From an uncultured Verrucomicrobiae bacterium (lineage in GTDB: Bacteria > Verrucomicrobiota > Verrucomicrobiia > Chthoniobacterales > JAFAMB01), in contig CAVXLD010000002.1 in the NCBI GenBank assembly GCA_963762565.1, positions 37,140-101,139 on the forward strand: a DNA stretch of 64,000 nt, in the 5' to 3' direction. Shown one piece after another: positions 49,991-64,000 of this stretch. The translations under genes were made by a program, and so were the position numbers. Each line of letters opens with the position of its first letter. Position 1 is the stretch's first letter. The notes under the pieces were generated by a model. The model did not search any database and was not told the DNA's origin. It saw nothing but the letters and a program-made list of their open reading frames with translations.

Positions 49991-50752
49991 ATGCCTGAGG
50001 AACTGGTCCGAATGGACCGTATCAATAAATTCTTCGGACGGGTGCAGGCCTTGAACGATGTGAGCCTGTCCGTAAACCGGAGCGAAATTGTCGGCTTATT
50101 AGGGGATAATGGCGCGGGTAAATCGACCCTGATCAAGATCCTTTCGGGCGCACTACGAGCCGACAGCGGAGATATCTACATGCATGGCAACCGGGTAAAA
50201 ATTCGGAATACCACGGACGCCATGGCATTGGGCATTGAGACCATCTATCAAGATTCGGCTCTGATTTCCCAACTCTCTATCGCTCGCAACCTGTTTCTCG
50301 GACGCGAGCCCGTAAAGGCGCCGCGTTTCTTTGATCGGTTGGATCAGGACACGATGAACGAGGTCGCCGGTAAGCTGCTCAAACAGGTCGGCATAAAGAA
50401 AGAAATCCCGCCGACCACCCCAATCAACGCGTTGTCCGGAGGGGAACGCCAAGCCGTCGCTATCGCCCGAGCGATGCATTTCGAGAGCGACTTGATTATT
50501 CTGGACGAACCGACCAACAATCTAGGGGTCGAAGAAACTCAGGGTGTACTTCGATTCGTTCGCAGCGCTCGAGACTCGGGACACTCCTGCATCCTGATCG
50601 CGCATAACATCTACCACGTGTTTCTGGTGGTCGACCGGATCATCGTGCTGCGTCGAGGCAAAACCGTAGCAGACGATATCGACCCGAAAAAGACAACGAT
50701 CGAAGCGGTCGAAAGCGTCATTACAGGGATGCCGATCGCACCCGCTCATTAA
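49991..50752 (+). CDS. Sugar ABC transporter ATPase
   Basis: GDNGAGKST, LSGGERQAVAIARA, LDEPT. Confidence 0.92.
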   Translation: MPEELVRMDRINKFFGRVQALNDVSLSVNRSEIVGLLGDNGAGKSTLIKILSGALRADSGDIYMHGNRVKIRNTTDAMALGIETIYQDSALISQLSIARNLFLGREPVKAPRFFDRLDQDTMNEVAGKLLKQVGIKKEIPPTTPINALSGGERQAVAIARAMHFESDLIILDEPTNNLGVEETQGVLRFVRSARDSGHSCILIAHNIYHVFLVVDRIIVLRRGKTVADDIDPKKTTIEAVESVITGMPIAPAH

Positions 50753-51095
50753 CTTCACCACAGGGCAGACTTCGCCCCATTGCGGCCCTTTTAGCTACGT
50801 CGGCCAAGGAGACAGAGGAGACGGAGATAAAATCCGCAGATTACACAGATTACGCAGATTACGTTTTGAGGTTGTGCGCTGCGGTGTACCAAAAACACGA
50901 GCCGGCGGGACACGTGTTTTTCATTTTCACGGAAAGATTCAGGGTCCAGCACGAAATCTGCGTAATCTGCGGATCTTTAACCTTTCGGTTCCACGGTTCT
51001 TTCTTCCGATGATTTTTAGTTCGGTAGTCGCAGCGTTTGTAGGAATCTGCGGTTGACCTCGCCCATGGGTCGATCTACTCTACGCTTCTTTTCGG

Positions 51096-51169
51096 CGGGC
51101 TGTGGCTCAGCTTGGTAGAGCGCCACGTTCGGGACGTGGAGGCCGTGGGTTCGAATCCCACCAGCCCGA
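51096..51169 (+). tRNA. tRNA-Pro (CGG); 3' CCA not encoded
   Basis: CGGGCTG acceptor stem, CCACG-TTCGGGA-CGTGG anticodon arm, GTTCGAATC. Confidence 0.95.
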
Positions 51170-51352
51170 TTCTAATTCCGGGAGCGCCGGCAGCGCCGAA
51201 AACGCGGCATTCAATCGCCGCATGGAACAAACCCCCGGTACCAAGGAACATAGGAATCGCGGGGACGCGATCCCTCCCGACCCTGGGGCGATCCGGCCAC
51301 CAAGCGCCAAGACTGCACCACCAATCGCTTCTCACCTCTCACTTCTCACGTC

Positions 51353-51874
51353 TCACAGCGAAGCATTAAGCGCCGCTTGGTACGCATCGTAAATCTCGCG
51401 TCCAAAACAAACAAAAATGACGCTTTCGGGGAGCTGATTGGTTTTGAGATAGGCCGTCGTCTCACCCACGGCGATCTGGCAAGCATTCTGAATAGGATAA
51501 CCGTAGATTCCACAACTGATCGCCGGAAAGGCGATTGTTCGCACCTGATGTTTTGTCGCCAATGCCAGCGAGTTTCGATAACAGCGAGCAAGAAGCTCCG
51601 GCTCGCCCCGAGTCCCGCCACCCCAGATAGGTCCGGCCGTATGAATGACGTGTCTCGCAGGTAAACGGTACGCGGCCGTAATCCTCGCTTCGCCCGTTGG
51701 ACATCCTCCTAAAGTTCGGCACTCCGCTAATAGTTCCGGGCCGGCCGCACGGTGAATAGCTCCATCGACACCTCCGCCACCGAGCAAGGACGTATTCGCA
51801 GCGTTTACCACGGCATCGACTTGCAGTTTCGTTATATCACCCTCGATCAATGAAACTCGCGTTAGCGGCGCCAT
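51353..51874 (-). CDS. Macro-domain O-acetyl-ADP-ribose deacetylase
   Basis: [35 protein letters not shown]. Confidence 0.93.
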
Positions 51875-51958
51875 AATTCGTGTCTATTAGTAACTGTTGC
51901 GAACGCCAGACCGTCAATTCACTCAAATAACCAACACTGAAACGAAAGCAGGAACAAC

Positions 51959-52483
51959 ATGGAAACAGGATCTCTCTTCCGCAAATTATTCGCTCAAGCA
52001 CTAGGTTTATCGATTATTTGCGCTTGTGCGAGCGTACCCGCGCTAGGCCAAGACAATAGTCCGAACGGTGCACCTTCCGCGAGTCCCGCAAACCCTGGAG
52101 CGCAAGGAGTCGCGCCGGCCAGGCAGGGACACATGAATCCTGACAAGATCAAGCAGCGCCAGTTAGCGCGGCTACAGCAAATCTGTCAGCTAACCCAAGA
52201 TCAGCAAACCAAGATCACTCCTGTCATCAGCAATTTCGTCGACCAATTAGTGGCGGTGAGAAGTGATAGCTCGCTGCAACCCGACGCAAAGAAGGCCAAG
52301 CAAAAAGAACTGCGCCAAGCGTACAACCGGCAACTGCGATCGCTACTGACGCTGGAACAAAAACAAGCTTTGAAGAACGCGAGAGCCGCTCAAAATCAGG
52401 CTAAAGTTCAGAACCAGAACGGCAATCAGGAACAAGACGAAAAATTCGAGCAGGGATCGAATCAGCCCGGCTCGGGAATCTAG
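51959..52483 (+). CDS. Exported helical protein (Spy/CpxP-like LTxxQ motifs)
   Basis: Signal peptide; LTQDQQ and LTLEQK. Confidence 0.6.
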   Translation: METGSLFRKLFAQALGLSIICACASVPALGQDNSPNGAPSASPANPGAQGVAPARQGHMNPDKIKQRQLARLQQICQLTQDQQTKITPVISNFVDQLVAVRSDSSLQPDAKKAKQKELRQAYNRQLRSLLTLEQKQALKNARAAQNQAKVQNQNGNQEQDEKFEQGSNQPGSGI

Positions 52484-52985
52484 GAGCGGCAAAGCCGCTC
52501 GGGGCGCGTGGTCTTGAATTGAGTTGACGCCCGTCGCAAGGGAGGGATCGCTGCCTGTCCGCCTTAGCCCTGGTACCAATCACGGTTTTCGTGGACAAGA
52601 TTGGCGACGGCGGATCCTGGCGATCCCCTATTACCGAAACGGGGCACGTTGCGATCTCAGACCGAAATACGCCTTTAGGTTGAGGCACGTCCTCGCGGCG
52701 CGCGGGGACGCGCGCCCTCCGCGACCGCACGGGGTTTGGGAAGCTTTTCCTTCTTCGTACCACCTTCCCATTAACTACGGTGGACAGGGAGGCGCGCTTA
52801 CCTCGCGTCGAGCAATCTCAAGCCGATTCGCGGTCAAGTCCGACACTACCTGGGCTTTCACCAAACCGCGAACTTCGCTGCTCGTTGCATCCGTTATTTC
52901 GATCAATCGATCAAATGTTAAACCACTTACAAATAACGTTATTTAATCTTGTATATAATAAGAATCACGCTAAGATCCACCCCAT

Positions 52986-53483
52986 ATGCAAATCACATCT
53001 GTATCCAGAGCTTTGTTCGCTGCCCTCGTCGCCGGCACCTTGGTTTCGGCGTACGCGGATCCAGTCGACCAAGCAACGGCTCCCAAACCAGACGTTCAAT
53101 CCAATGCTAGCCAGCAACCCAGTCCGGTCGCCCCATCCAACTTCCCTAAGAAGCGGTCGGTTTCTCCCGATTCCCTCAAGAAGCGGGAGCTCACCATGCT
53201 ACGAAAGAGTGTCACCTTAACCCCTGACGAAGAGAACAAGGTTACACCAATCATCAGTACCTACGTCGACGCTGTGCAAGTCGTGAAGGCGGACGCCAGT
53301 ACGACCACCGCCGAAAAGAGAGCTAAACGAAAGGAATTACACGACCAATACATTAGCAACGTAAAGGCCGTTCTGACTCCTGATCAGGCGCAGACCTGGG
53401 AAACAGCTAATGCTGAACGGATCGCCCGGCTGCGGGCCAAGAAAAACGCCCCTGCTCCGGCCGAAAGCGCTTCCCAAGAATAA
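52986..53483 (+). CDS. Exported helical protein, similar architecture to 51959..52483
   Basis: Signal peptide ending AYA-D; LTPDEE and VLTPDQ. Confidence 0.65.
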   Translation: MQITSVSRALFAALVAGTLVSAYADPVDQATAPKPDVQSNASQQPSPVAPSNFPKKRSVSPDSLKKRELTMLRKSVTLTPDEENKVTPIISTYVDAVQVVKADASTTTAEKRAKRKELHDQYISNVKAVLTPDQAQTWETANAERIARLRAKKNAPAPAESASQE

Positions 53484-53579
53484 GAGAAACCTGCAACCAA
53501 TCAGAAAGGAGGACAACCCTTCTCCTGCGGTTGCTCCGTAGGAGAAGGCGGCCGCGTGTTGGTGAGAAGTGATTAGTGG

Positions 53580-53675
53580 TGGTAGGGCGAGGCTCCCGAA
53601 TAGCCCAACGGTTCCCCAGAGCACCAGGTATTGCACGTCGAGCGGTGTTATTACGTCAATTGCGCGCCGAGCCGA
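53580..53675. repeat. Left half of a family A element
   Basis: tggtagggcgaggctcccgaa ... cgccgagccg; no right arm found. Confidence 0.6.
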
Positions 53676-53765
53676 AAGCCCCTGGTGAACCACGACTTGA
53701 CACGCGAGGCCGCCGCATCTTCTCTGGTCAGCCAAGAGGAATTCGCGAATAATAGGAGGGTCGAC

Positions 53766-53981
53766 ATGACAATCGCGGAAAGACTCTTGGAACTTAAGCA
53801 TTCCGGCCAAGCTTTTGTCCTGCATTTGAACGACGGCCGCGCACTTAGGATCCGAGCCGGAAATTATATTTCTTTAAACCCTTCCGGCAAAGGTACAAAC
53901 GTGACTGTTTACGGTGACGGCGAGGACGAAGAACATTTTATTCCGATTTTCGCAATCAGTAGCGTCTCGGTAGAGATCTGA
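53766..53981 (+). CDS. Small hypothetical protein (71 aa)
   Basis: AGGAGG Shine-Dalgarno before the ATG; beta-rich, FVLHLNDGR. Confidence 0.65.
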   Translation: MTIAERLLELKHSGQAFVLHLNDGRALRIRAGNYISLNPSGKGTNVTVYGDGEDEEHFIPIFAISSVSVEI

Positions 53982-54176
53982 GAACCGACCTTTCCGCACA
54001 CAACGATGCAGACGTGGGGAGCCGATGACGCTCTGCAGATTTCGATTCGATGCCACTCCTACCGAGCTAATGCGAATTTGCCGATGTCGAGGCTATAAAG
54101 ATTTCGCTACTACGGAGCTCACAGGTCCCTCCGAACGCCAAAAGGCTTTCAGAAGCGGCCAGACGCAAGGCAGGCT

Positions 54177-54593
54177 TCAAGCCATTTCAAACCCGGCAAA
54201 CTCAAATCCTGGCGCAACAGTACACCCCACTAATGTCCAGGCTCCGAGCGTTTCCGCCGTTTGCCATCGGAAGGCTGGAACAATGGCTTGAGGACGTTCA
54301 TTCTTCAGTAAGTCGTTCCCAAGCAGAACGGTTTCAACTGGGCCTTCCCCCTCCCTGATCTGTAACCGGATCGGGGCGCCGCCGTACCAATGCCACACCT
54401 CAACCGCATCGATGCGATGCCAACCGGAAATTTCACCCTGTTTGAGCAAAAAATAGATCGCGGTCGATGCCGATCTTTCCTCTACTTTTTTGGCATCGCG
54501 GAACGTCTCCCGGAAATACCCGCCTTCCGGGTGCGCCTGGAGCTGTAACAACCGAATCACTTCGTCAGCAGTGAGAGAACCAGAGTCGGACAT
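54177..54593 (-). CDS. Cupin_5 (DUF985)-type protein
   Basis: HPEGGYFRET, STAIYFLL, WHR..EVWHWY, CTVAPGFEF. Confidence 0.9.
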   Translation of the reverse strand: MSDSGSLTADEVIRLLQLQAHPEGGYFRETFRDAKKVEERSASTAIYFLLKQGEISGWHRIDAVEVWHWYGGAPIRLQIREGEGPVETVLLGNDLLKNERPQAIVPAFRWQTAETLGAWTLVGCTVAPGFEFAGFEMA

Positions 54594-54802
54594 AGCAACC
54601 GCGAATAGATCCGCCTTCGCACGAAAATAAGTCAAGGGAGATATCTCTTAATCTCAAGCTATGGCGGACAGGCTGCGAATGGACGCGAACACAAAAGAAA
54701 ACAACCGCAGATGGACCCGTCGCAAGATGAGTCGGACCTCTCAATCGTCCGCGTCCTCGAAAGGGCGTGGCACGTTGAAGCGATACGCGATTGCCCTGCG
54801 CC

Positions 54803-55073
54803 TGGAGGGGAGCCGCTTTGGCGCGTATCTTCCCGCCCTCGCGAATTTCGTCTCAACACTAATCCGGCCGAAACGTGCAAAATCAGGCGGCTCCCGCGAG
54901 TGACCCCAGCGGTTTGCAGCTCTACGGCCGAGTGTAAACGAGTCGGAACTGCGGGTAAAATCATCGCGCTGGATTATTCCCGGGAGCCGCCTGTTGTGAC
55001 ATTTTTGGTCGAACTGAACCCTAAAACAAATATCGCGAGGTCGTCTGCTACATGCCAAAGCGGCTCCCCTCCA
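54803..55073. repeat. REPIN-like element family B, copy 3
   Basis: tggaggggagccgctttggc ... caggcggctcccg ... cgggagccgcctg ... gccaaagcggctcccctcca. Confidence 0.85.
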
Positions 55074-55200
55074 CGCGTTGGGAACAAAAACGCCTTTTCA
55101 ACAGGCCACACCTTTCGAGGGCGACGGTCAGGACCGGTCTGGTCCATCTTGCGGCGGATTCATCTGTGGTTGTTTCTTCCATCTTTTCGTCCATTCGCGG

Positions 55201-55557
55201 TTAAGGAATGTAGACGAGCTGATAAACTGTTCGGTGGATCCTTACGCGCTGTTTGGTCTGCGGGTCTCGATACCAAAAGGTCTTTTGTTGGCGGACGAAT
55301 ACGCCGTTCGCGCCGCTCTGTGCCGCCATGGTCCGAACCTGCGACCAAGTATCACCTGACATGGCTTCCAGGCGATCCTGAATCGTGACCACTCCAAGTT
55401 GAGCGAAAGGCGGGCTGGGCGCAGCAGCTAATAACCGAACCGATTGCTCGGGAAGCGCAGGATACTGAGGTCCGGCCGGAGCTGGTTTGTGCGCGCAAGC
55501 GCCGAGCAGCAGACAAGCTGTAGAGATCAGCACCCACTTCAGACGGCGGCTCATCAT
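55201..55557 (-). CDS. Hypothetical lipoprotein
   Basis: MMSRRLK..LLLGAC lipobox; AAQSGANGV. Confidence 0.65.
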   Translation of the reverse strand: MMSRRLKWVLISTACLLLGACAHKPAPAGPQYPALPEQSVRLLAAAPSPPFAQLGVVTIQDRLEAMSGDTWSQVRTMAAQSGANGVFVRQQKTFWYRDPQTKQRVRIHRTVYQLVYIP

Positions 55558-55677
55558 TTTGACATTGACCACTGCTTAGCCTTGTCGTCCAAACTCCCTC
55601 ACCGCGCAATTCGCGGAAACAACCCTGGGGACCGTAAGAATTTCGTAATGCTGATACAGTCCGTCGGAGATATCACC

Positions 55678-55972
55678 ATGATTGGTCGAAATCTGTTGTT
55701 GGTCTTCACGACCGCAAGCTTTGCCGCCGCCCTACTCGATACCTGCAAAAACGAGCTTGGCGGATCCAGTAGCCAGCGTCGTGATGCAATCGCGGCGATT
55801 CGCTGAGGCGGGAAAATGGGAGGAGGCCAATAGAGTGCTTCAAGATGGGCTGTCGGCGACAAAAGAGAAGGCGAACAAAAACATTCTGCTGAAGCGATTC
55901 AGTATGCTGAGCAGGCCGTCCAATTGGCAAAGTCCGGGAACAGTCCCGGAGCCCTTTACGCTGCCCAATTGA
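55678..55972 (+). pseudogene. Possible relic of an exported TPR-like protein
   Basis: Signal-like segment in one frame and AEAGKWEEANRVLQDGL in another; no intact ORF. Confidence 0.25.
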
Positions 55973-56191
55973 GCCCAAGCGAAACTGTACCAGGAAACTG
56001 GTAAAACGACGGAAGCAACGGGACCAGCGGAGCAAAGCCGGGTTGGGGTTGAAGCTTTTGGTAGCGCTGGAGATGCGAAGGATGCTCAAGATTTTCTGGA
56101 GAAGCATCGCTGATTGCCAAAGCTCCCCAGCGGCTCAAATTTCAGACAAAGACACGAAGCGACGAAAAGACAGCCATCCCGCTTGTCCGCA

Positions 56192-59100
56192 GCCTCAACG
56201 CGGCCGCGGCTTGTTAGCCGCGGAAATGTTTACGAGAGTAGACGCCCGTCCCTGACTCGCTCAAGCTTCAATGGGGCCGCGGCTTGTTAGCCGCGGAAAT
56301 CAAGCCTCGGAGGGCATGTCGCACCGCATATTCGAGCGACGCTTCAATGGGGCCGCGGCTTGTTAGCCGCGGAAATCTGCCGTTACAGGTCGATGGACTG
56401 TCGGCGACTTGTCGCTTCAATGGGGCCGCGGCTTGTTAGCCGCGGAAATCTGCCTGCGAGATCGTGCCACCAGTGAGTTGTAACGTAGCTTCAATGGGGC
56501 CGCGGCTTGTTAGCCGCGGAAATCGCCTGAACGTAACAGCTTCGGTGCCGAGCAGATTCAGCTTCAATGGGGCCGCGGCTTGTTAGCCGCGGAAATGTCG
56601 AACTGGAGGTCCGAGCTGCAGCGCCATCACTGAATGCTTCAATGGGGCCGCGGCTTGTTAGCCGCGGAAATCGCGACAATGTCGAGCGATCAGCGCAGCC
56701 TATCACTGGCTTCAATGGGGCCGCGGCTTGTTAGCCGCGGAAATAGCTCGCATGCCGTCACTGGCATCGCGAGTCGTAGACGCTTCAATGGGGCCGCGGC
56801 TTGTTAGCCGCGGAAATTCGTCGACGCTAAGATCCGATCGGTGCCGTCGAGTCATGCTTCAATGGGGCCGCGGCTTGTTAGCCGCGGAAATCGTGCAGTC
56901 ATCGACGATCTGCGATCGACGCGTAGATCGTGCTTCAATGGGGCCGCGGCTTGTTAGCCGCGGAAATTCGAGCTACGCTCCGTCGATCAGCGTCGAGCTA
57001 TAGCTGCTTCAATGGGGCCGCGGCTTGTTAGCCGCGGAAATGCTCGATCGACTGTCGATCTAGATGCAGACCGATAGCGTGCTTCAATGGGGCCGCGGCT
57101 TGTTAGCCGCGGAAATGCATCGACTTGACTGGCATCATGGCGCGTCATCGACGTAGCTTCAATGGGGCCGCGGCTTGTTAGCCGCGGAAATGCTACGCTA
57201 GTTCTACGGCATACGGCAGTCGACATGTACGCTTCAATGGGGCCGCGGCTTGTTAGCCGCGGAAATCGATCGAGTCGCTATGCGAGCATGGTCACGAGCA
57301 TCGATACGCTTCAATGGGGCCGCGGCTTGTTAGCCGCGGAAATGTGCATCGACCGGTCGATGAATCAGCGATGCTACGACAGCTTCAATGGGGCCGCGGC
57401 TTGTTAGCCGCGGAAATGCGTCGACGAATCCATCGAGTCGAGCACGCTGAGCGTCAGCTTCAATGGGGCCGCGGCTTGTTAGCCGCGGAAATGTCGAGCT
57501 GGACTGCATCGAGACGCTGCGAACCGATACAGCTTCAATGGGGCCGCGGCTTGTTAGCCGCGGAAATCACGTCGAGCGTGATCGCCTAGCGATGCTGACA
57601 CAGTGCTTCAATGGGGCCGCGGCTTGTTAGCCGCGGAAATGCTGCGAATGCGAGCCTAACGATGCCAGACGCTAGACTGCTTCAATGGGGCCGCGGCTTG
57701 TTAGCCGCGGAAATCGTCAATGTACCGACGCGAGATCGCTACGGCACGGTACGCTTCAATGGGGCCGCGGCTTGTTAGCCGCGGAAATCGCGACTCATCG
57801 CGTGCAGCTATCGCTGACGCAGCATCGCTTCAATGGGGCCGCGGCTTGTTAGCCGCGGAAATGTCAGCCTGCAGTTCGATGCATAGCGGCGTCAACGGCT
57901 TCAATGGGGCCGCGGCTTGTTAGCCGCGGAAATGCATCGATCGATGCTGCGTTCGACGATCGAGACGATCGCTTCAATGGGGCCGCGGCTTGTTAGCCGC
58001 GGAAATTCGACTGAGTCGGTGAGTGTCATGCATCGAAGTTGATCGGCTTCAATGGGGCCGCGGCTTGTTAGCCGCGGAAATTGTCGCGATGTCGCGAGCG
58101 CTAGTCACGGTCCACGATCGCTTCAATGGGGCCGCGGCTTGTTAGCCGCGGAAATTGCGGTCATGCGGCAGTTACCGTAACGTCTGATGGCATGCTTCAA
58201 TGGGGCCGCGGCTTGTTAGCCGCGGAAATATCGCCGATAGCTGCCGAGTCATGCGTCGGATCGACAGGCTTCAATGGGGCCGCGGCTTGTTAGCCGCGGA
58301 AATGTCGCATGCGATCGCTGACAATGCGCATCAGCTGACGTGCTTCAATGGGGCCGCGGCTTGTTAGCCGCGGAAATATGACCGGCTGCGATCGAGCATG
58401 CTGAGCGTCAATCGCAGCTTCAATGGGGCCGCGGCTTGTTAGCCGCGGAAATACCGATCCGAGCGATCGGACTAGACGCAATGCAATCGACGCTTCAATG
58501 GGGCCGCGGCTTGTTAGCCGCGGAAATGCGGATCAGCTGACGAGCATCGATCGCGACATCGATGACGCTTCAATGGGGCCGCGGCTTGTTAGCCGCGGAA
58601 ATCGATCGACTGGCGCGACAGCTCAGCGATACGCAATCTCGCTTCAATGGGGCCGCGGCTTGTTAGCCGCGGAAATGCATCGAGATGCGTCAGCGTTGCG
58701 AGTCACTGATCATGCTTCAATGGGGCCGCGGCTTGTTAGCCGCGGAAATCGATGCCAGCGATGACGCTCGACGTCGATCGCTGAATCGCTTCAATGGGGC
58801 CGCGGCTTGTTAGCCGCGGAAATGTACGCGCTAGCGAGTATCGCGATGACATGCCGAATAGCTGCTTCAATGGGGCCGCGGCTTGTTAGCCGCGGAAATG
58901 CGTCATCGGCATGGTCACAGCTGATGCGCGATCATGACGCTTCAATGGGGCCGCGGCTTGTTAGCCGCGGAAATCGCTAGTGCTCGTCGCATAGCGTGTC
59001 GACTGCATGCTTGCTTCAATGGGGCCGCGGCTTGTTAGCCGCGGAAATGCGTACGTCGCTGTCGATCGCGACATCGCGATCAATGCAGCTTCAATGGGGC

Positions 59101-59707
59101 CGCGGCTTGTTAGCCGCGGAAATCGATCGAGCTGAGTCGCATGCAGCATCGACGATCGATGCATGCTTCAATGGGGCCGCGGCTTGTTAGCCGCGGAAAT
59201 CTGAGTCGACGCTGGCATCCAGTGACGCGATTACGTGCTTCAATGGGGCCGCGGCTTGTTAGCCGCGGAAATGTCGACGAGCTCGATCATGCCGACAGTC
59301 GCATCAAGCGGCTTCAATGGGGCCGCGGCTTGTTAGCCGCGGAAATCAGCCGGTCCGATCGCACGACATGCTATCGGCATGCGCTTCAATGGGGCCGCGG
59401 CTTGTTAGCCGCGGAAATCGACGGCTATCGGCTCGATAGCGTCGCAGATCACGCTTCAATGGGGCCGCGGCTTGTTAGCCGCGGAAATCGCGTCAGCATC
59501 AGCCTGACAGATCATCGATAGTGCTTCAATGGGGCCGCGGCTTGTTAGCCGCGGAAATTAGCCGATATGCGCTCGTACGGACTGCGAATCGATACGCTTC
59601 AATGGGGCCGCGGCTTGTTAGCCGCGGAAATCTCGGACGCGAATCGCAGCTAGCCGATCGTCGAGCTATGCGCTTCAATGGGGCCGCGGCTTGTTAGCCG
59701 CGGAAAT
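56192..59707 (-). CRISPR. CRISPR array, 48 repeats / 47 spacers, type I-G-like 36-bp repeat ATTTCCGCGGCTAACAAGCCGCGGCCCCATTGAAGC
   Basis: 47 identical repeats plus a degenerate trailer repeat at 56192-56227; spacers 34-41 nt; CCGCGGC hairpin; ATTGAAGC 3' end. Confidence 0.97.
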
Positions 59708-59911
59708 AGCCTCTCGCTAACCCGCTCAGCCGCAATGGGCACACAGCGATCTCGCGAGCGGTACCTTGCATTCGGTTCCGGCCTTTAATTAACCATCCAA
59801 ATTCTATCATGTTCTCTTGAACAGTTTTCTCCTCGTAATTCGATTACATCGCGAGCGCTCTCAACGACTTCTTCATCACCAGACCGCTCGCGACCAAAAT
59901 GTCAAAGAAAT
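59708..59911 (-). promoter_or_regulatory. CRISPR leader
   Basis: Non-coding 204 bp between cas2 and the first intact repeat; AT-richer core; recurrent TCGCGAGCG motif. Confidence 0.75.
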
Positions 59912-60202
59912 TCACACCACGAAACACGCCGTATCCACATTGATATAAGGGATCCCTATGGCCGTGATTTCGCGTTGACCTCGTTGCTCAGCCGGCCCGA
60001 GGCGTATAAATAAAACCTGATCTTCTTCCCGTTTAATTTCTCCAACCAGCTTCTCTTCAAATTGAAGCTTCTCGCCGGGAGTAAGATCGCATTCAAAAAC
60101 CGAGAACTGAAGGTGTTGACCGAAATCTTTGCAAACCTTGAACACCCGACGGAGTCGTTTGGGATCGGCCACATCGTAACAGACGATATAAGTATTTCTC
60201 AT
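59912..60202 (-). CDS. cas2: CRISPR-associated endonuclease Cas2
   Basis: YIVCYDVADPKRLRRVFK, HLQFSVFEC. Confidence 0.95.
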   Translation of the reverse strand: MRNTYIVCYDVADPKRLRRVFKVCKDFGQHLQFSVFECDLTPGEKLQFEEKLVGEIKREEDQVLFIRLGPAEQRGQREITAIGIPYINVDTACFVV

Positions 60203-62160
60203 CGGGTCACAAAAGGCCGATAAATTGCGACCTCTCCGGTTAACACTCGGGCTAGAAGCCGGAACTGGAGCTCGATAGCGCGCCGGTAACAGACTTTATA
60301 ATCGAACACCGGATGGGTCACGACACTGGTTAACCGGGCCTCATACGCTTCAAAGAAGATCTTTCGTCCCCGCGCGGTGAGATTGGTTGCGTTCCCAGCT
60401 CGAACAAAATGAGATTCATCCAGCATCCGATTATTAACCAGGGTCACGGCCACTGAATCCGCGATTAACGGCCGGAATTCTTCCATGATATCGAGCGCTA
60501 ACGCCGGGCGCCCAAACCGAGGTTGATGATAGAAACCGACATAGGGATCGAACCCGACGGCAGCAGCGGCGATCGCGCAATCCTTTGCTAATAAGCTGTA
60601 ACCAAGGGAAAGCAGCGCGTTGACCGGGTCCCGCGGCGGTCGCCGGTTACGTGCTCGAAAGTCGAAAGTTAGGGAGTCGTCGGATTCAGGTTTCAACATT
60701 CCGGCGAAAGCGCCGAAATAGTTTGCTGCCGCTGCGCCTTCGATCCCGAGAAGTTCATTCAAGCTCTTGGCCAGGAGTGCATCATTCACTGCCTGACGCA
60801 ACCGGTTCAATAAAGGCGTGGGTGGTTCCTCATGGTTTCGCATCAACATCGTCCGTTGATTCCGGATTTTGCCGGCAACAAAGGATCTGGAAAAAAGCAG
60901 GCATTGGCGCTCTTGCGCGGCCACACCGAATTGAGCGATCCGGGTAAAGACATTAGTTAGACCGAGTCCATGAGTAATCCCGTAGAACCAGCCGCCGCCC
61001 GAGAAGAATGTAATCGGGACTTCCTGATCGCAAAGTTCTTGTACGACTTGAGTTGAAACTTGGATATTACCGAAAATACCTAGATGATTGATGTCCCGGA
61101 TCCGGACTTCTTGTAGGACGGTTTTCTTGTCGCGGATCTCCAATACCTCCCCTTTCCTGCCGACGTTCAAGCCGGGCGAATTCAGGTAAAGAACACGCCG
61201 TTCATCGCGGGCTGCCAGGGATCTGCGCCCAGTAAAATTAAACTCGTTGTCCCCTTCTGTCTTTACCGATGGGTCTGTATCAGGACCAAGTTGACGCAGA
61301 AAATTGGTTTCATCCGGGAGACACACCGGCGCCAGTGAACAACGCACACATTTCGGTGACGCGACGAGCGGAGCAGGTCGTTCACCCTCCGCACAAGCTC
61401 GAGCTCTGGCTATGATCTCGATCGCCCAATTCTCGATCTCGGGTGTGATTTCCAACCGCACACGCTGTTTCGTGCCGCGATAATAAAGAATCCCTTCTTT
61501 GCAGTCGTACCCGTTATCTCGAAGGATTAGGCATTGCAGAACTAACTGGATCTTATCGGTATCCCAGAGCTCGATCCCGTTCTCACCCTCTCTAGGGGTA
61601 CCGGCTTTATATTCAACCGGACAAACCTGCACATTGCTGAAGAGATCGGTACGAATTTCAACCAGATCCATCTTGCACACTACTCCGAGCCGATCGGAAG
61701 CCAGCTCAACAGAACGCGAATGGATAATGTCTTCCTTCGCCAAGGCGCCGGAGGACAAGTCCTCGCCAGGCTTCCCCTGCCCTCCGTCTCCCTTGGCCGG
61801 AGCGCTTGGTAAAGAGCCAGAGCCTAGATCGACACGTTTATGTCCTTGTGAACCGCGAATCGTGTCAGCGTTCTCCACAAATACGCCTTCCACCTGCTCG
61901 TAGTAGAACAAGCGCGGACAATAAACGAACTCGTTAATCATCCGAGCCGGGAGATAGGTCGGAATTAGATTCGGTTGCTCGGAACGATTAGACGAAGCCG
62001 GATCTAAGATTTGAACCGCTTCTTCCTCAGCCAAGACGGGCAGATTCCCGGTTCGCGGCCCAGGGACCCGAGAGCTAAGTTCTTTTAAGCGTTCTAGACG
62101 GCTGACCGCCCGTCTACTTGGCGACATCCTGCGCGTTTTCGGTCCCGCACGTTTGGCCAT
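60199..62160 (-). CDS. cas4-cas1: Cas4/Cas1 fusion (type I-G adaptation module)
   Basis: Cas4: YCPR, VEYK, CxxCxxxxxC; Cas1: LGIEG, RNRRPPRDPVNALLS, GFYH, LALDIMEEFR. Confidence 0.95.
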   Translation of the reverse strand: MAKRAGPKTRRMSPSRRAVSRLERLKELSSRVPGPRTGNLPVLAEEEAVQILDPASSNRSEQPNLIPTYLPARMINEFVYCPRLFYYEQVEGVFVENADTIRGSQGHKRVDLGSGSLPSAPAKGDGGQGKPGEDLSSGALAKEDIIHSRSVELASDRLGVVCKMDLVEIRTDLFSNVQVCPVEYKAGTPREGENGIELWDTDKIQLVLQCLILRDNGYDCKEGILYYRGTKQRVRLEITPEIENWAIEIIARARACAEGERPAPLVASPKCVRCSLAPVCLPDETNFLRQLGPDTDPSVKTEGDNEFNFTGRRSLAARDERRVLYLNSPGLNVGRKGEVLEIRDKKTVLQEVRIRDINHLGIFGNIQVSTQVVQELCDQEVPITFFSGGGWFYGITHGLGLTNVFTRIAQFGVAAQERQCLLFSRSFVAGKIRNQRTMLMRNHEEPPTPLLNRLRQAVNDALLAKSLNELLGIEGAAAANYFGAFAGMLKPESDDSLTFDFRARNRRPPRDPVNALLSLGYSLLAKDCAIAAAAVGFDPYVGFYHQPRFGRPALALDIMEEFRPLIADSVAVTLVNNRMLDESHFVRAGNATNLTARGRKIFFEAYEARLTSVVTHPVFDYKVCYRRAIELQFRLLARVLTGEVAIYRPFVTR

Positions 62161-62316
62161 TAGATTAGGTGCTCACAATTCTCTAAGAGGAACAATAACG
62201 CGGAGGAACCTTAGCCAAACAGATCCGCGAGAGAAAGCCAAGCAAAACCGCGGCCAAAAAAGGGAGTAGCCGGAAATCTTAGTTGATGGCGGTTAAGCGC
62301 GTGACAGATTTCTGTC

Positions 62317-62580
62317 ATGCAAACGACGTTGCGGATCGATGACGCTCTTTATCGTGAAGCCAAAGCAAAAGCTGCGATCCTTGGGATCAGTCTTACTCAG
62401 CTTCTAGAAGAAGCCCTTCGCGCAAAACTGCGCGAAAAACCGTCGCGCCGGCCTCGACGGCGAGTTCGTTTACCAGTTTCCTCTGCCAGAGGCGGTCTGT
62501 TATCGCCTTCGAAAACGTTGCCGGAGCTGATCGAGGCCGCAGATTTAGCCCATGACCTTTCGACAGCCAGGAACCGATAA
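62317..62580 (+). CDS. Ribbon-helix-helix antitoxin (VapB-like)
   Basis: MQTTLRIDDALYREAKAKAA..SLTQLLEEALR; TAATG overlap with the PIN gene. Confidence 0.8.
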   Translation: MQTTLRIDDALYREAKAKAAILGISLTQLLEEALRAKLREKPSRRPRRRVRLPVSSARGGLLSPSKTLPELIEAADLAHDLSTARNR

Positions 62581-62872
62581 TGGATGTGGTTGACGCTAAT
62601 ATCCTCATCGGCGCATTTCGGCCGGACCATCTTGATCACCGTTTGCTGAAACGCTTGTTACAAGGAAGGCTGAACCAACCGACTTCGATCACCTTTCCAC
62701 ATCTCGTTGAGGTCGCGTTCCTCCGCATTGTTTCGCACCCCAAAATTTTTCGTCACCCGTCAACGTTCAAGGAAGCCCACTCATTCTTAGAAGCGATCCG
62801 TGACAGCGGGGCCTTTGAAGAACCGCCCGTATTACCTGGCTTTAGAAACACTCTGGCTGAGCTTTCCAGGTT
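62580..62872 (+). pseudogene. 3'-truncated VapC/PIN-domain toxin
   Basis: DANIL, FLRIVSHPKIF; similarity ends near aa 97 and the rest is antisense of the next gene. Confidence 0.7.
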
Positions 62873-63920
62873 GAATATCGATAACGGACACCGTGTCGTC
62901 CTGGTAGTTAGTCACGTAGGCAAACTTTTGGTCAGGGGTAATCGCTACCGCCCGTGGCTGAAACCCAACCGTGATTGGCTTTCCCACTGTCTTGTAAGTC
63001 GTCGTACTGACCATAATGACCTTGTTGCTCGGTCCCGAATTGCTCGAATTCAACGGTAGGTAAAGATATTTACCGTCTGGCGTCACCGCACAATACCCGG
63101 GATAATTACTCTCTTTGATGTTCTTGATGACTTTGTTATCCTGGATGACCACGAACGCCCTCTTGGCGAGACTAACCACGTAAACATCCTCCTCGCCTTT
63201 TGGGTTTACGACACAAAAATTTGGATTGGTTGTCTTGATCCCAGAACCGATCACCGCCTGCGCTGCCGTGTCGATCACAAAAACGGCATTGTCATTGCCG
63301 TCGCACACGTAGGCGGTCCTCCCATCCGGGGTAAACGCTACGGCCTCGGCCGAGGTTCCGATTGCAATACTTTTGGTAACCGTTTTGGTTTTCGTATCAA
63401 TCACTGACACAGTCCCAGAATTCACATTCGGCACATAAGCCTGCTTTCCGTCTGGGCTAATCGCCAAGAACTTCGGTTTGTTGCCCAACCCCGCTATCTG
63501 ATTCAGGAGAGTACCGGTGCTGGCGTTGAGAACAGTCACGGTGCCGGGACTAATAGAATTGGTGACGTAAACTTCTGTCCCATCGGGTGTAATCGCCATT
63601 CCGATTGGGTTAGCACCCGCGGAAAAGGACTTCACAACGATTTTGCTCGGCGCGTAGATCTCTGAAATCGTGTTATCGTTTTGGTTCACGACGTACACAA
63701 AAATATTGTCCGGATTGACGACGATCAGGTTGGGACCCGCCCCTACCATAAGCGTAGCAACGACTTCGTTTTTGGGCAGCGTGTCAGGTGTGATCCGGTC
63801 CGCCCCTTCTTGCCCGCAGACCCTTAACATCGGGCAAGCAGCGATAAAGGCGATGATCGTCCTAAGCAAGAATTGTTTGCTGAGCACCCGATGTACGAAT
63901 GCACTTTTATATTTGAGCAT
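62832..63920 (-). CDS. YVTN/YncE-type beta-propeller protein
   Basis: Repeated AITPDG..AYVTN..TVSVID blades; N-terminal signal-like segment. Confidence 0.85.
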   Translation of the reverse strand: MLKYKSAFVHRVLSKQFLLRTIIAFIAACPMLRVCGQEGADRITPDTLPKNEVVATLMVGAGPNLIVVNPDNIFVYVVNQNDNTISEIYAPSKIVVKSFSAGANPIGMAITPDGTEVYVTNSISPGTVTVLNASTGTLLNQIAGLGNKPKFLAISPDGKQAYVPNVNSGTVSVIDTKTKTVTKSIAIGTSAEAVAFTPDGRTAYVCDGNDNAVFVIDTAAQAVIGSGIKTTNPNFCVVNPKGEEDVYVVSLAKRAFVVIQDNKVIKNIKESNYPGYCAVTPDGKYLYLPLNSSNSGPSNKVIMVSTTTYKTVGKPITVGFQPRAVAITPDQKFAYVTNYQDDTVSVIDIQPGKLSQSVSKAR

Positions 63921-64000
63921 AATTCTGACCTCCCCTAAAAGAGCACTAGGCCTGGATTTTTATTCCCTACTCTTGTGAGCGAAAGGGGTCAGTCAAAGGA

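Follow-up and report, generated by a model that had tools for sequence, protein, structure and literature searches.

A long CRISPR array in an uncultured Verrucomicrobiae bacterium raises the question of whether spacers reported in a genome assembly need ever have existed in a cell. The array lies in a stretch of DNA of 64,000 nucleotides (nt), hereafter the window (C2:37140-101139), taken from an assembly of 6.12 Mb in 15 contigs. It comprises 48 repeat copies at 56192-59707, one of them degenerate and 47 of them exact 36-nt copies (56265-59707), with a period of about 74 nt, and the 47 spacers between the repeats measure 34-41 nt each. A reading made from the sequence only had noticed that 45 consecutive spacers, bounded by 56377 and 59671, hold no run of three identical bases (a triplet) and few doublets; these bounds coincide exactly with the start of spacer 3 and the end of spacer 47 when counting begins at the trailer end. 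Our analysis indicates that, almost certainly, 45 of the 47 spacers do not represent real DNA and instead arose during genome assembly, which merged the reads of cells with many different spacers, and we give a probability of roughly 0.87 to the reading that spacers 3-47 are an assembly artefact marking a population of highly diverse spacers. The parts of the array to which the argument refers are the following.

56192-56227, minus strand: degenerate terminal (trailer-end) repeat with 3 substitutions relative to the consensus repeat, found also in the metagenome contigs of runs X1 and X2 described below.
56228-56264, minus strand: spacer 1, natural in composition, with 3 triplet runs and 7 doublets.
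56265-59707, minus strand: the 47 exact 36-nt repeats (number as assembled), reading GCTTCAATGG at the start and GGAAAT at the end on the plus strand.
56301-56340, minus strand: spacer 2, natural-looking in composition, with one triplet run (GGG) and 7 doublets.
56377-56635, minus strand: spacers 3-6 with their repeats, intermediate in composition.
56672-59671, minus strand: spacers 7-47 with their repeats, putative pseudo-spacers of extreme composition that simulation reproduces.

The composition of spacers 3-47 was compared with that of 2,000 samples of genome fragments matched to them in length. Triplet positions number 0 in the 1,711 nt of these spacers, none of the 45 bearing one, against 106 ± 12 (minimum 68) in the genome samples, so that the dozens of triplet runs that the sequence-only reading had expected by chance are indeed what ordinary DNA of this length would contain. 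Doublet frequency is 0.070 compared with 0.271 ± 0.011, and 4-mers made of all four bases are over-represented 3.5-fold (0.302 versus 0.086 ± 0.009). That reading had also described the spacers as dominated by TCGA, CGAT and GATC words and the two trailer-end spacers as containing triplet runs. Both descriptions hold, with TCGA (52), CGAT (49), ATCG (49) and GATC (37) as the four commonest 4-mers of spacers 7-47 (n = 1,437) and with the runs listed above for spacers 1 and 2. Within the array, spacers 3-6 have 0 triplets in 151 nt and a doublet frequency of 0.163, while spacers 7-47 (1,560 nt) have 0 triplets, a doublet frequency of 0.061, a share of all-four-base 4-mers of 0.317, a guanine-plus-cytosine (GC) content of 0.582 and a mean length of 38.0 nt. 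Doublet frequency stays flat (0.054-0.069) from spacer 7 up to the leader end, where spacers 45-47 are as unnatural as the other extreme spacers, and homopolymers inside the repeats (GGGG, AAA) are intact. The longest triplet-free stretch of the 6.12-Mb assembly measures 274 nt, and an assembly-wide scan for sustained low-doublet stretches found none comparable to the array, the 1,329 intervals outside it being short and the longest of them a tandem repeat of 115 nt. Such a composition is impossible for natural DNA.

Natural arrays with the same repeat family provided a second comparison. A repeat-core scan of species-representative genomes yielded 29 loci, of which 18 had adjacent repeats, and an exact-repeat scan of metagenome contigs yielded 10 loci. 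Given that the species-representative set of 207 spacers counts some spacers twice (loci L019 and L024 lie on a single contig and overlap), the control relied on here consists of 279 distinct, de-duplicated natural spacers from both scans, with a total of 10,232 nt. They contain 544 triplet positions (5.3 per 100 nt), have a doublet frequency of 0.251 and a share of all-four-base 4-mers of 0.092, and are 34-41 nt long. Natural spacers from the same repeat family, including several arrays that share the leader motif, are thus ordinary in composition, and the deviation of the window's spacers from both the genome and same-family arrays in run-length and k-mer statistics is far beyond chance. The two sets differ in another respect: a common 10-mer is found in 13 of 820 pairs of the observed spacers (0.016) and in 27 of 38,781 pairs of the natural ones (0.0007), such that long words are shared among the observed spacers at 20 times the natural rate. 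When the window spacers were compared with those of the 10 metagenome loci only, no 15-mer was common to both. In one related array from another assembly (L004), two adjoining spacers differ in their first 3 letters only and repeat variants alternate, a pattern that suggests recent unit duplication or mixed variants in that assembly.

We also searched for protospacers. Among 50,697 phage records no match was obtained at E<=1, and 72,556 plasmids gave 5 weak array-to-array matches (67-80% identity, over repeats) and none at the level of a spacer. The 85 matches in the own genome outside the array, the longest of 17 nt, were all at chance level. When viral contigs were scanned for exact copies of a 24-mer from spacer 1 and of a 26-mer from spacer 40, each scan returned 0 matches, such scans being insensitive to mismatched protospacers. 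The sequence-only reading had held that an artefact would be contradicted by real protospacers, and none of these searches contradicts it. They also bear on the idea that the spacers are real and come from an unusual source, or reflect an extreme acquisition bias against homopolymers. Perfect repeats, lengths of 34-41 nt within the natural range and intact adaptation genes would all suit such spacers. No natural DNA comes close to their composition, however, the 279 spacers of the same repeat family being ordinary, and a real origin also has to contend with the lack of protospacers, with the excess of long words shared among the spacers themselves and with their absence from contigs that have the array's flanks (see below). 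We regard this explanation as having almost no chance of being correct.

If the spacer letters are not those of any cell, a process has to be named that generates them from real reads. We simulated a greedy median string, in which one read serves as the start and single-base edits are kept while the summed alignment score improves. The scoring was +2/-2/-3, and the reads at one slot were unrelated natural spacers; a second version used genome fragments as reads. The results for different numbers (N) of distinct reads with natural spacers were as follows.

N = 2: doublet frequency 0.212, 75 triplets in 1,683 nt.
N = 4: doublet frequency 0.180, 32 triplets in 1,531 nt.
N = 8: doublet frequency 0.135, 17 triplets in 1,560 nt.
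N = 15: doublet frequency 0.092, 8 triplets in 1,537 nt.
N = 24: doublet frequency 0.060, 0 triplets in 1,152 nt.
N = 48: doublet frequency 0.050, 0 triplets in 1,230 nt.

The simulated doublet frequency thus drops smoothly as the number of distinct reads rises. At N = 48, the share of all-four-base 4-mers (0.319, observed 0.317), the GC content (0.569, observed 0.582; simulated range 0.569-0.576) and the mean length (38.4 nt, observed 38.0 nt) all lie near the values of spacers 7-47. The four commonest simulated 4-mers are the observed four (TCGA, CGAT, ATCG and GATC), and 7 of 496 simulated pairs (0.014) share a 10-mer, compared with 0.016 in the array. Between spectra from natural-spacer reads and the observed ones, the correlation is 0.96 (dinucleotides), 0.93 (3-mers) and 0.86 (4-mers); for 4-mers it is 0.88 with genome-fragment reads, and a chain constructed only to avoid repeated letters reaches 0.59. 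The composition of the array is therefore reproduced by a consensus over unrelated natural sequences. Two other forms of consensus were tried as the mechanism and rejected. A column-majority consensus over a MAFFT alignment gave 100 triplets in 1,078 nt, a doublet frequency of 0.304 and a GC content of 0.708 at N = 48, and stayed near natural composition at N = 6. Because this is the opposite composition, the consensus must be one that realigns while optimising. A median under unit edit cost reproduced the trend, but its strings were too short (31-34 nt) and had a GC content of 0.618. Common long-read polishers realign while optimising, a point for which a literature search gave no usable source, and iterative likelihood polishers test single-base edits against all reads, the real ones with error models.

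The trailer-end gradient was reproduced by the same procedure. When 9 of 15 reads carried one spacer, the consensus equalled that spacer in 30 of 30 trials. By contrast, when 5 of 15 reads carried it, the true spacer was returned in 0 of 30 trials and the doublet frequency was 0.179, an intermediate value like that of spacers 3-6. Given that a spacer shared by the majority comes back unchanged from the consensus, the natural composition of spacers 1-2 can be accounted for, and spacers 3-6 fit a consensus in which few variants (about 4-8) took part or one variant had a plurality.

We propose that the sampled population would have carried many different spacers at each position, with only one or two of the oldest, trailer-end spacers in common. 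The identical 36-nt repeats would have allowed reads of different cells to be stacked on one backbone, after which a consensus or polishing step may have sought, unit by unit and with insertions and deletions allowed, the string that aligns best to all reads (the median string). Over dozens of unrelated sequences, such a string would gain nothing from homopolymers and would tend to cycle through all four bases in an order set by the commonest dinucleotides of the source (C-G-A-T-C), which would produce TCGA, CGAT, ATCG and GATC words. The same process would be expected to raise GC content slightly and to keep the length near that of a real spacer. Where a majority of reads agreed (spacers 1-2) the true spacer would be returned, and where few variants competed (spacers 3-6) the outcome would be intermediate. 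The sequence-only reading had preferred a consensus averaged over a population with different spacers, in which only the oldest shared ones are retained. Its diverse population and its retained oldest spacers agree with our results, while the averaging does not, since the column-majority form of consensus gives the opposite composition.

An artefact could also arise from a uniform sample, in that a long clonal array might have been scrambled by reads placed in wrong registers or by homopolymer-compressing or neural polishing. Register errors are plausible among identical repeats, and any optimised consensus over unrelated sequences yields the signature. In that case, however, one common pool of about 47 real spacers would feed every slot. 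In a simulation with one fixed pool of 47 spacers, 224 of 1,081 slot pairs shared a 10-mer and 84 of 1,081 shared a 12-mer, whereas 13 of 820 and 2 of 820 of the observed slot pairs do so; the register-shifted pile-up of one clonal array was rejected as a candidate on this count, its slots being too alike. That the observed slots are far less alike than fixed-pool slots implies that the pools behind them were largely different, and this points to real population diversity instead of mis-registered reads of one array. In addition, reads anchored in the unique leader flank would have placed spacers 45-47 correctly, and yet these are as unnatural as the rest, while in a clonal sample the correctly placed reads would be the majority and would restore the true spacer, as in the 30 of 30 trials above. 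Nor do intact homopolymers in the repeats and the doublets still present in the spacers (0.061) fit homopolymer-compressing polishing. An artefact without population diversity is therefore improbable, although we rate it marginally above the other alternatives considered here.

Contigs built from short words, from four soil-metagenome runs of one study, were used to look for the array outside its own record. Of the words sampled from window 55000-61500, the four runs contain 0.47, 0.46, 0.32 and 0.30, and the flanks make up about 46% of that interval, about equal to the largest of these shares. A contig of 4,620 nt with a depth of 14.8 (run X1) matches both flanks with 0 other letters and joins 56227 to 59672 through 37 other natural-looking letters, followed by the last repeat and the leader. 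A second contig (run X2, depth about 8.5) likewise has the flanks with 0 other letters and joins 56264 to 59672; it carries spacer 1 minus one base at 56233 and then the last repeat. The spacer beside the terminal repeat thus differs between X1 and X2 although the flanks are identical. Array variants with identical flanks exist, and even the oldest position (56227/56228) is variable between samples. Spacers 3-47 are not in the X1 and X2 contigs that bear the identical flanks, with the limit that such contigs can drop rare variants. Coverage of the array interior in the four runs is near zero, the small values stemming from short contigs that match mostly the repeats, and by itself this is not evidence of absence. 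Spacer 1 is probably a real, widely shared oldest spacer, and a real spacer 2 is plausible.

One interval outside the array stood out in the same runs. Window 55027-55097, inside the unassigned open frame 54711-55388, is matched at 90-95% in each of the four soil runs by many short contigs that are otherwise unrelated, with a summed depth of up to 230 compared with about 15 around it. The matching contigs diverge on both sides, and neither the Rfam nor the tRNA scan matched the interval, which looks like a short conserved or mobile sequence that is widespread.

Recurrence of the signature was followed in the same order. Of 401 genomes sampled, 94 carry Cas4g/Cas1g; the 30 best loci included 22 with a detected array, and an array was called deviant when its doublet z-score fell below -4. 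Three of the 22 arrays were deviant, namely those of the present genome (G000, -9.9), G266 (-5.4) and G258 (-4.9), while the other 19 lay between -1.4 and +2.7. The deviant share was 3 of 13 in assemblies of <=50 contigs and 0 of 9 in assemblies of >100 contigs, counts that are small, come from related genomes and use rounded contig numbers. Among 20 longer regions fetched, that of G054 (an assembly of 4 contigs) contained a run of spacers with 1-3 doublets. The arrays of G266, G258 and G054 (L085, L088 and L090) have doublet frequencies of 0.149-0.171 and 1.3-2.8 triplet positions per 100 nt; their spacer lengths are irregular (22-51 nt overall, 26-49 nt in G266 and G258), and the trailer-most spacer is natural in L085 and L088. 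Three other related, highly contiguous assemblies therefore show a weaker form of the signature.

These graded versions are also relevant to whether the letters were computed from reads at all, instead of being typed, generated or inserted as synthetic fill during preparation of the record. Made-up 'random' DNA typically shows ATCG-cycle words and avoids runs of one base, no metagenome run was found to hold spacers 3-47, and the protospacer searches were empty. On the other hand, irregular lengths of 22-51 nt in partially affected arrays of three other assemblies are unlike fill. The composition in the window also tracks natural input (GC content 0.582 versus 0.569-0.576; dinucleotide correlation 0.96; length 38.0 versus 38.4 nt), and the steps from natural to intermediate to extreme at the trailer end fit a population structure. 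An engineered array is likewise at odds with variable spacer lengths (34-41 nt) and with flanks that occur in four soil-metagenome runs. We consider synthetic fill a slim prospect, a shade slimmer than the scrambling of a clonal array.

The reading of spacers 3-47 as an assembly artefact that marks diverse spacers draws on indirect evidence, namely the simulations that match the composition, the trailer-end gradient, the contigs without the spacers and the recurrence in other assemblies. Several points weigh against it. The column-majority consensus fails, so that a particular class of consensus algorithm is needed, and the simulated outcome hinges on the chosen scoring, as the strings of 31-34 nt under unit edit cost illustrate. 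To fit best, the simulation requires about 24 or more distinct sequences at each slot, against depths of only about 15 and 8.5 in X1 and X2. Short-word contigs can collapse through a 36-nt repeat, so that missing spacers and joins in them prove no absence in the reads; the X1 and X2 joins could be real short arrays, and the four runs found may not include the source run. Finally, hand-typed or machine-generated 'random' DNA favours ATCG-type words as well. We infer the type of assembler, how many units there truly are and which spacers the cells carried, in contrast to the composition, the behaviour of the simulations, the joins in the contigs and the recurrence, which were shown.

Apart from its spacers, the array has the attributes of a genuine type I-G CRISPR with minus-strand transcription and with the leader, cas2 and cas4g/cas1g on its right. 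The features to the right of the last repeat are these.

59708-59911, minus strand: leader of 204 nt, which opens with the motif AGCCTCTCGCTAAC...
59912-60202, minus strand: cas2, 96 amino acids (TIGR01573, 42.3 bits, cut-off 24.5).
60199-62160, minus strand: cas4g/cas1g fusion, 653 amino acids, the type I-G adaptation gene (NF049935, 699.1 bits, cut-off 560).

The match to NF049935 agrees with the type I-G assignment that had been made from the sequence only, and the degenerate repeat on the left, the cas genes on the right and the leader motif after the last repeat support a minus-strand reading with the oldest spacers at the left, as had likewise been proposed. The leader motif also comes after the last repeat in 5 of the 10 metagenome loci with the identical repeat, and the leader's first 26 bases gave 0 matches in a scan of metagenome contigs. 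Direct repeats of about 36 nt are present at regular spacing, the terminal copy being degenerate, as are the adjoining Cas4g/Cas1g fusion, Cas2 and leader, and the adaptation genes in the window are intact. Unique spacers of natural composition, which a type I-G array should also have, are represented by spacers 1-2 only, spacers 3-47 departing from this. An assembly-wide search found the 36-nt repeat absent from the rest of the 6.12-Mb assembly.

No I-G effector gene (Cas3g, Cas8g, Cas7g or Csb2) adjoins the array. The effector families Cas3g, Cas8g1/Csx17, Cas7g and Csb2 match the start of another contig (C10:860-8472, locus L100) on the minus strand, where each gene is split over several overlapping open frames and every piece scores below its curated cut-off; Cas3g, for example, appears as four pieces that cover profile positions 1-122, 241-326, 319-582 and 749-854. 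The base composition of this region is ordinary, and its fragmentation may reflect real decay or consensus insertion and deletion errors near the contig end. In the window, Rfam and tRNA scans of 50000-64000 gave a tRNA-Pro at 51096-51169 only. About 4 kb at 51900-56100, bordered by genes for a Macro-domain protein and a cupin and by the array, has only short overlapping open frames on both strands and no NCBIfam or Pfam match except cupin.

What the 45 spacers would mean for users of the record can be stated directly. They say nothing on targets, and the advice in the sequence-only reading to keep them out of target prediction was right; they should be treated as invented sequence, as host-virus linking, spacer databases and strain typing would gain noise from them. 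The record is a species representative, and the array looks perfect to CRISPR finders, with exact repeats, regular spacing and plausible lengths. The signature is nevertheless easy to screen for, and conversely it marks loci of high natural spacer diversity. Given that doublet frequency falls with the number of distinct sequences, a value of 0.061 would imply some two dozen or more different spacers at each of about 41 positions, with largely different pools behind them. A broader proposal, that scrambled spacers are a quantitative footprint of extreme environmental spacer diversity and that the artefact is general, is tentative, and we hold it at somewhat less than even odds; so far, about 20 inspected arrays have yielded 3 further cases. 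If it is true, one soil population would hold several hundred or more distinct spacers while sharing only one or two anchor spacers, and triplet runs together with doublets per spacer could flag invented spacers and map the fastest turnover of CRISPR arrays. Were the footprint common among highly contiguous metagenome-assembled genomes, invented spacers would be present in virus-host predictions and in public spacer collections.

The closest precedent comes from single long reads. In PMC6617893, such reads revealed many array variants in one community, and a trailer-end 'anchor' spacer was common to 263 of 303 and 169 of 173 reads. The present array is similar in that only trailer-end spacers look real and the remainder behaves as a mixture of variants. 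It differs in that spacers in that study came from individual unassembled reads, whereas the diversity here is deduced from the footprint in a consensus only. The Background section of the same paper names collapsed or chimeric assembly of repeat regions for short reads, and the full-text literature searched, including passages of PMC8862349, PMC13543314, PMC8813620, PMC6593500 and PMC6617893, gave no account of spacers made by a consensus. As in a collapsed assembly, identical repeats would pile different variants on one path, and the X1 and X2 contigs join trailer to leader. By contrast, the array in the record is structurally neither collapsed nor chimeric: its 47 units are regular, its repeats are perfect, and the error lies in the spacer letters. 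Synthetic recording arrays, made in laboratory E. coli by supplying Cas1-Cas2 with designed oligonucleotides that lack long homopolymers, resemble the array in having homopolymer-poor, base-balanced spacers; those spacers, however, are of fixed length and belong to type I-E in laboratory strains, while the present ones are of 34-41 nt in a type I-G array of a soil-metagenome organism. Median-string and likelihood polishers use the same type of search as our simulation, which reproduces the composition of the array with simple scores where real polishers use error models.

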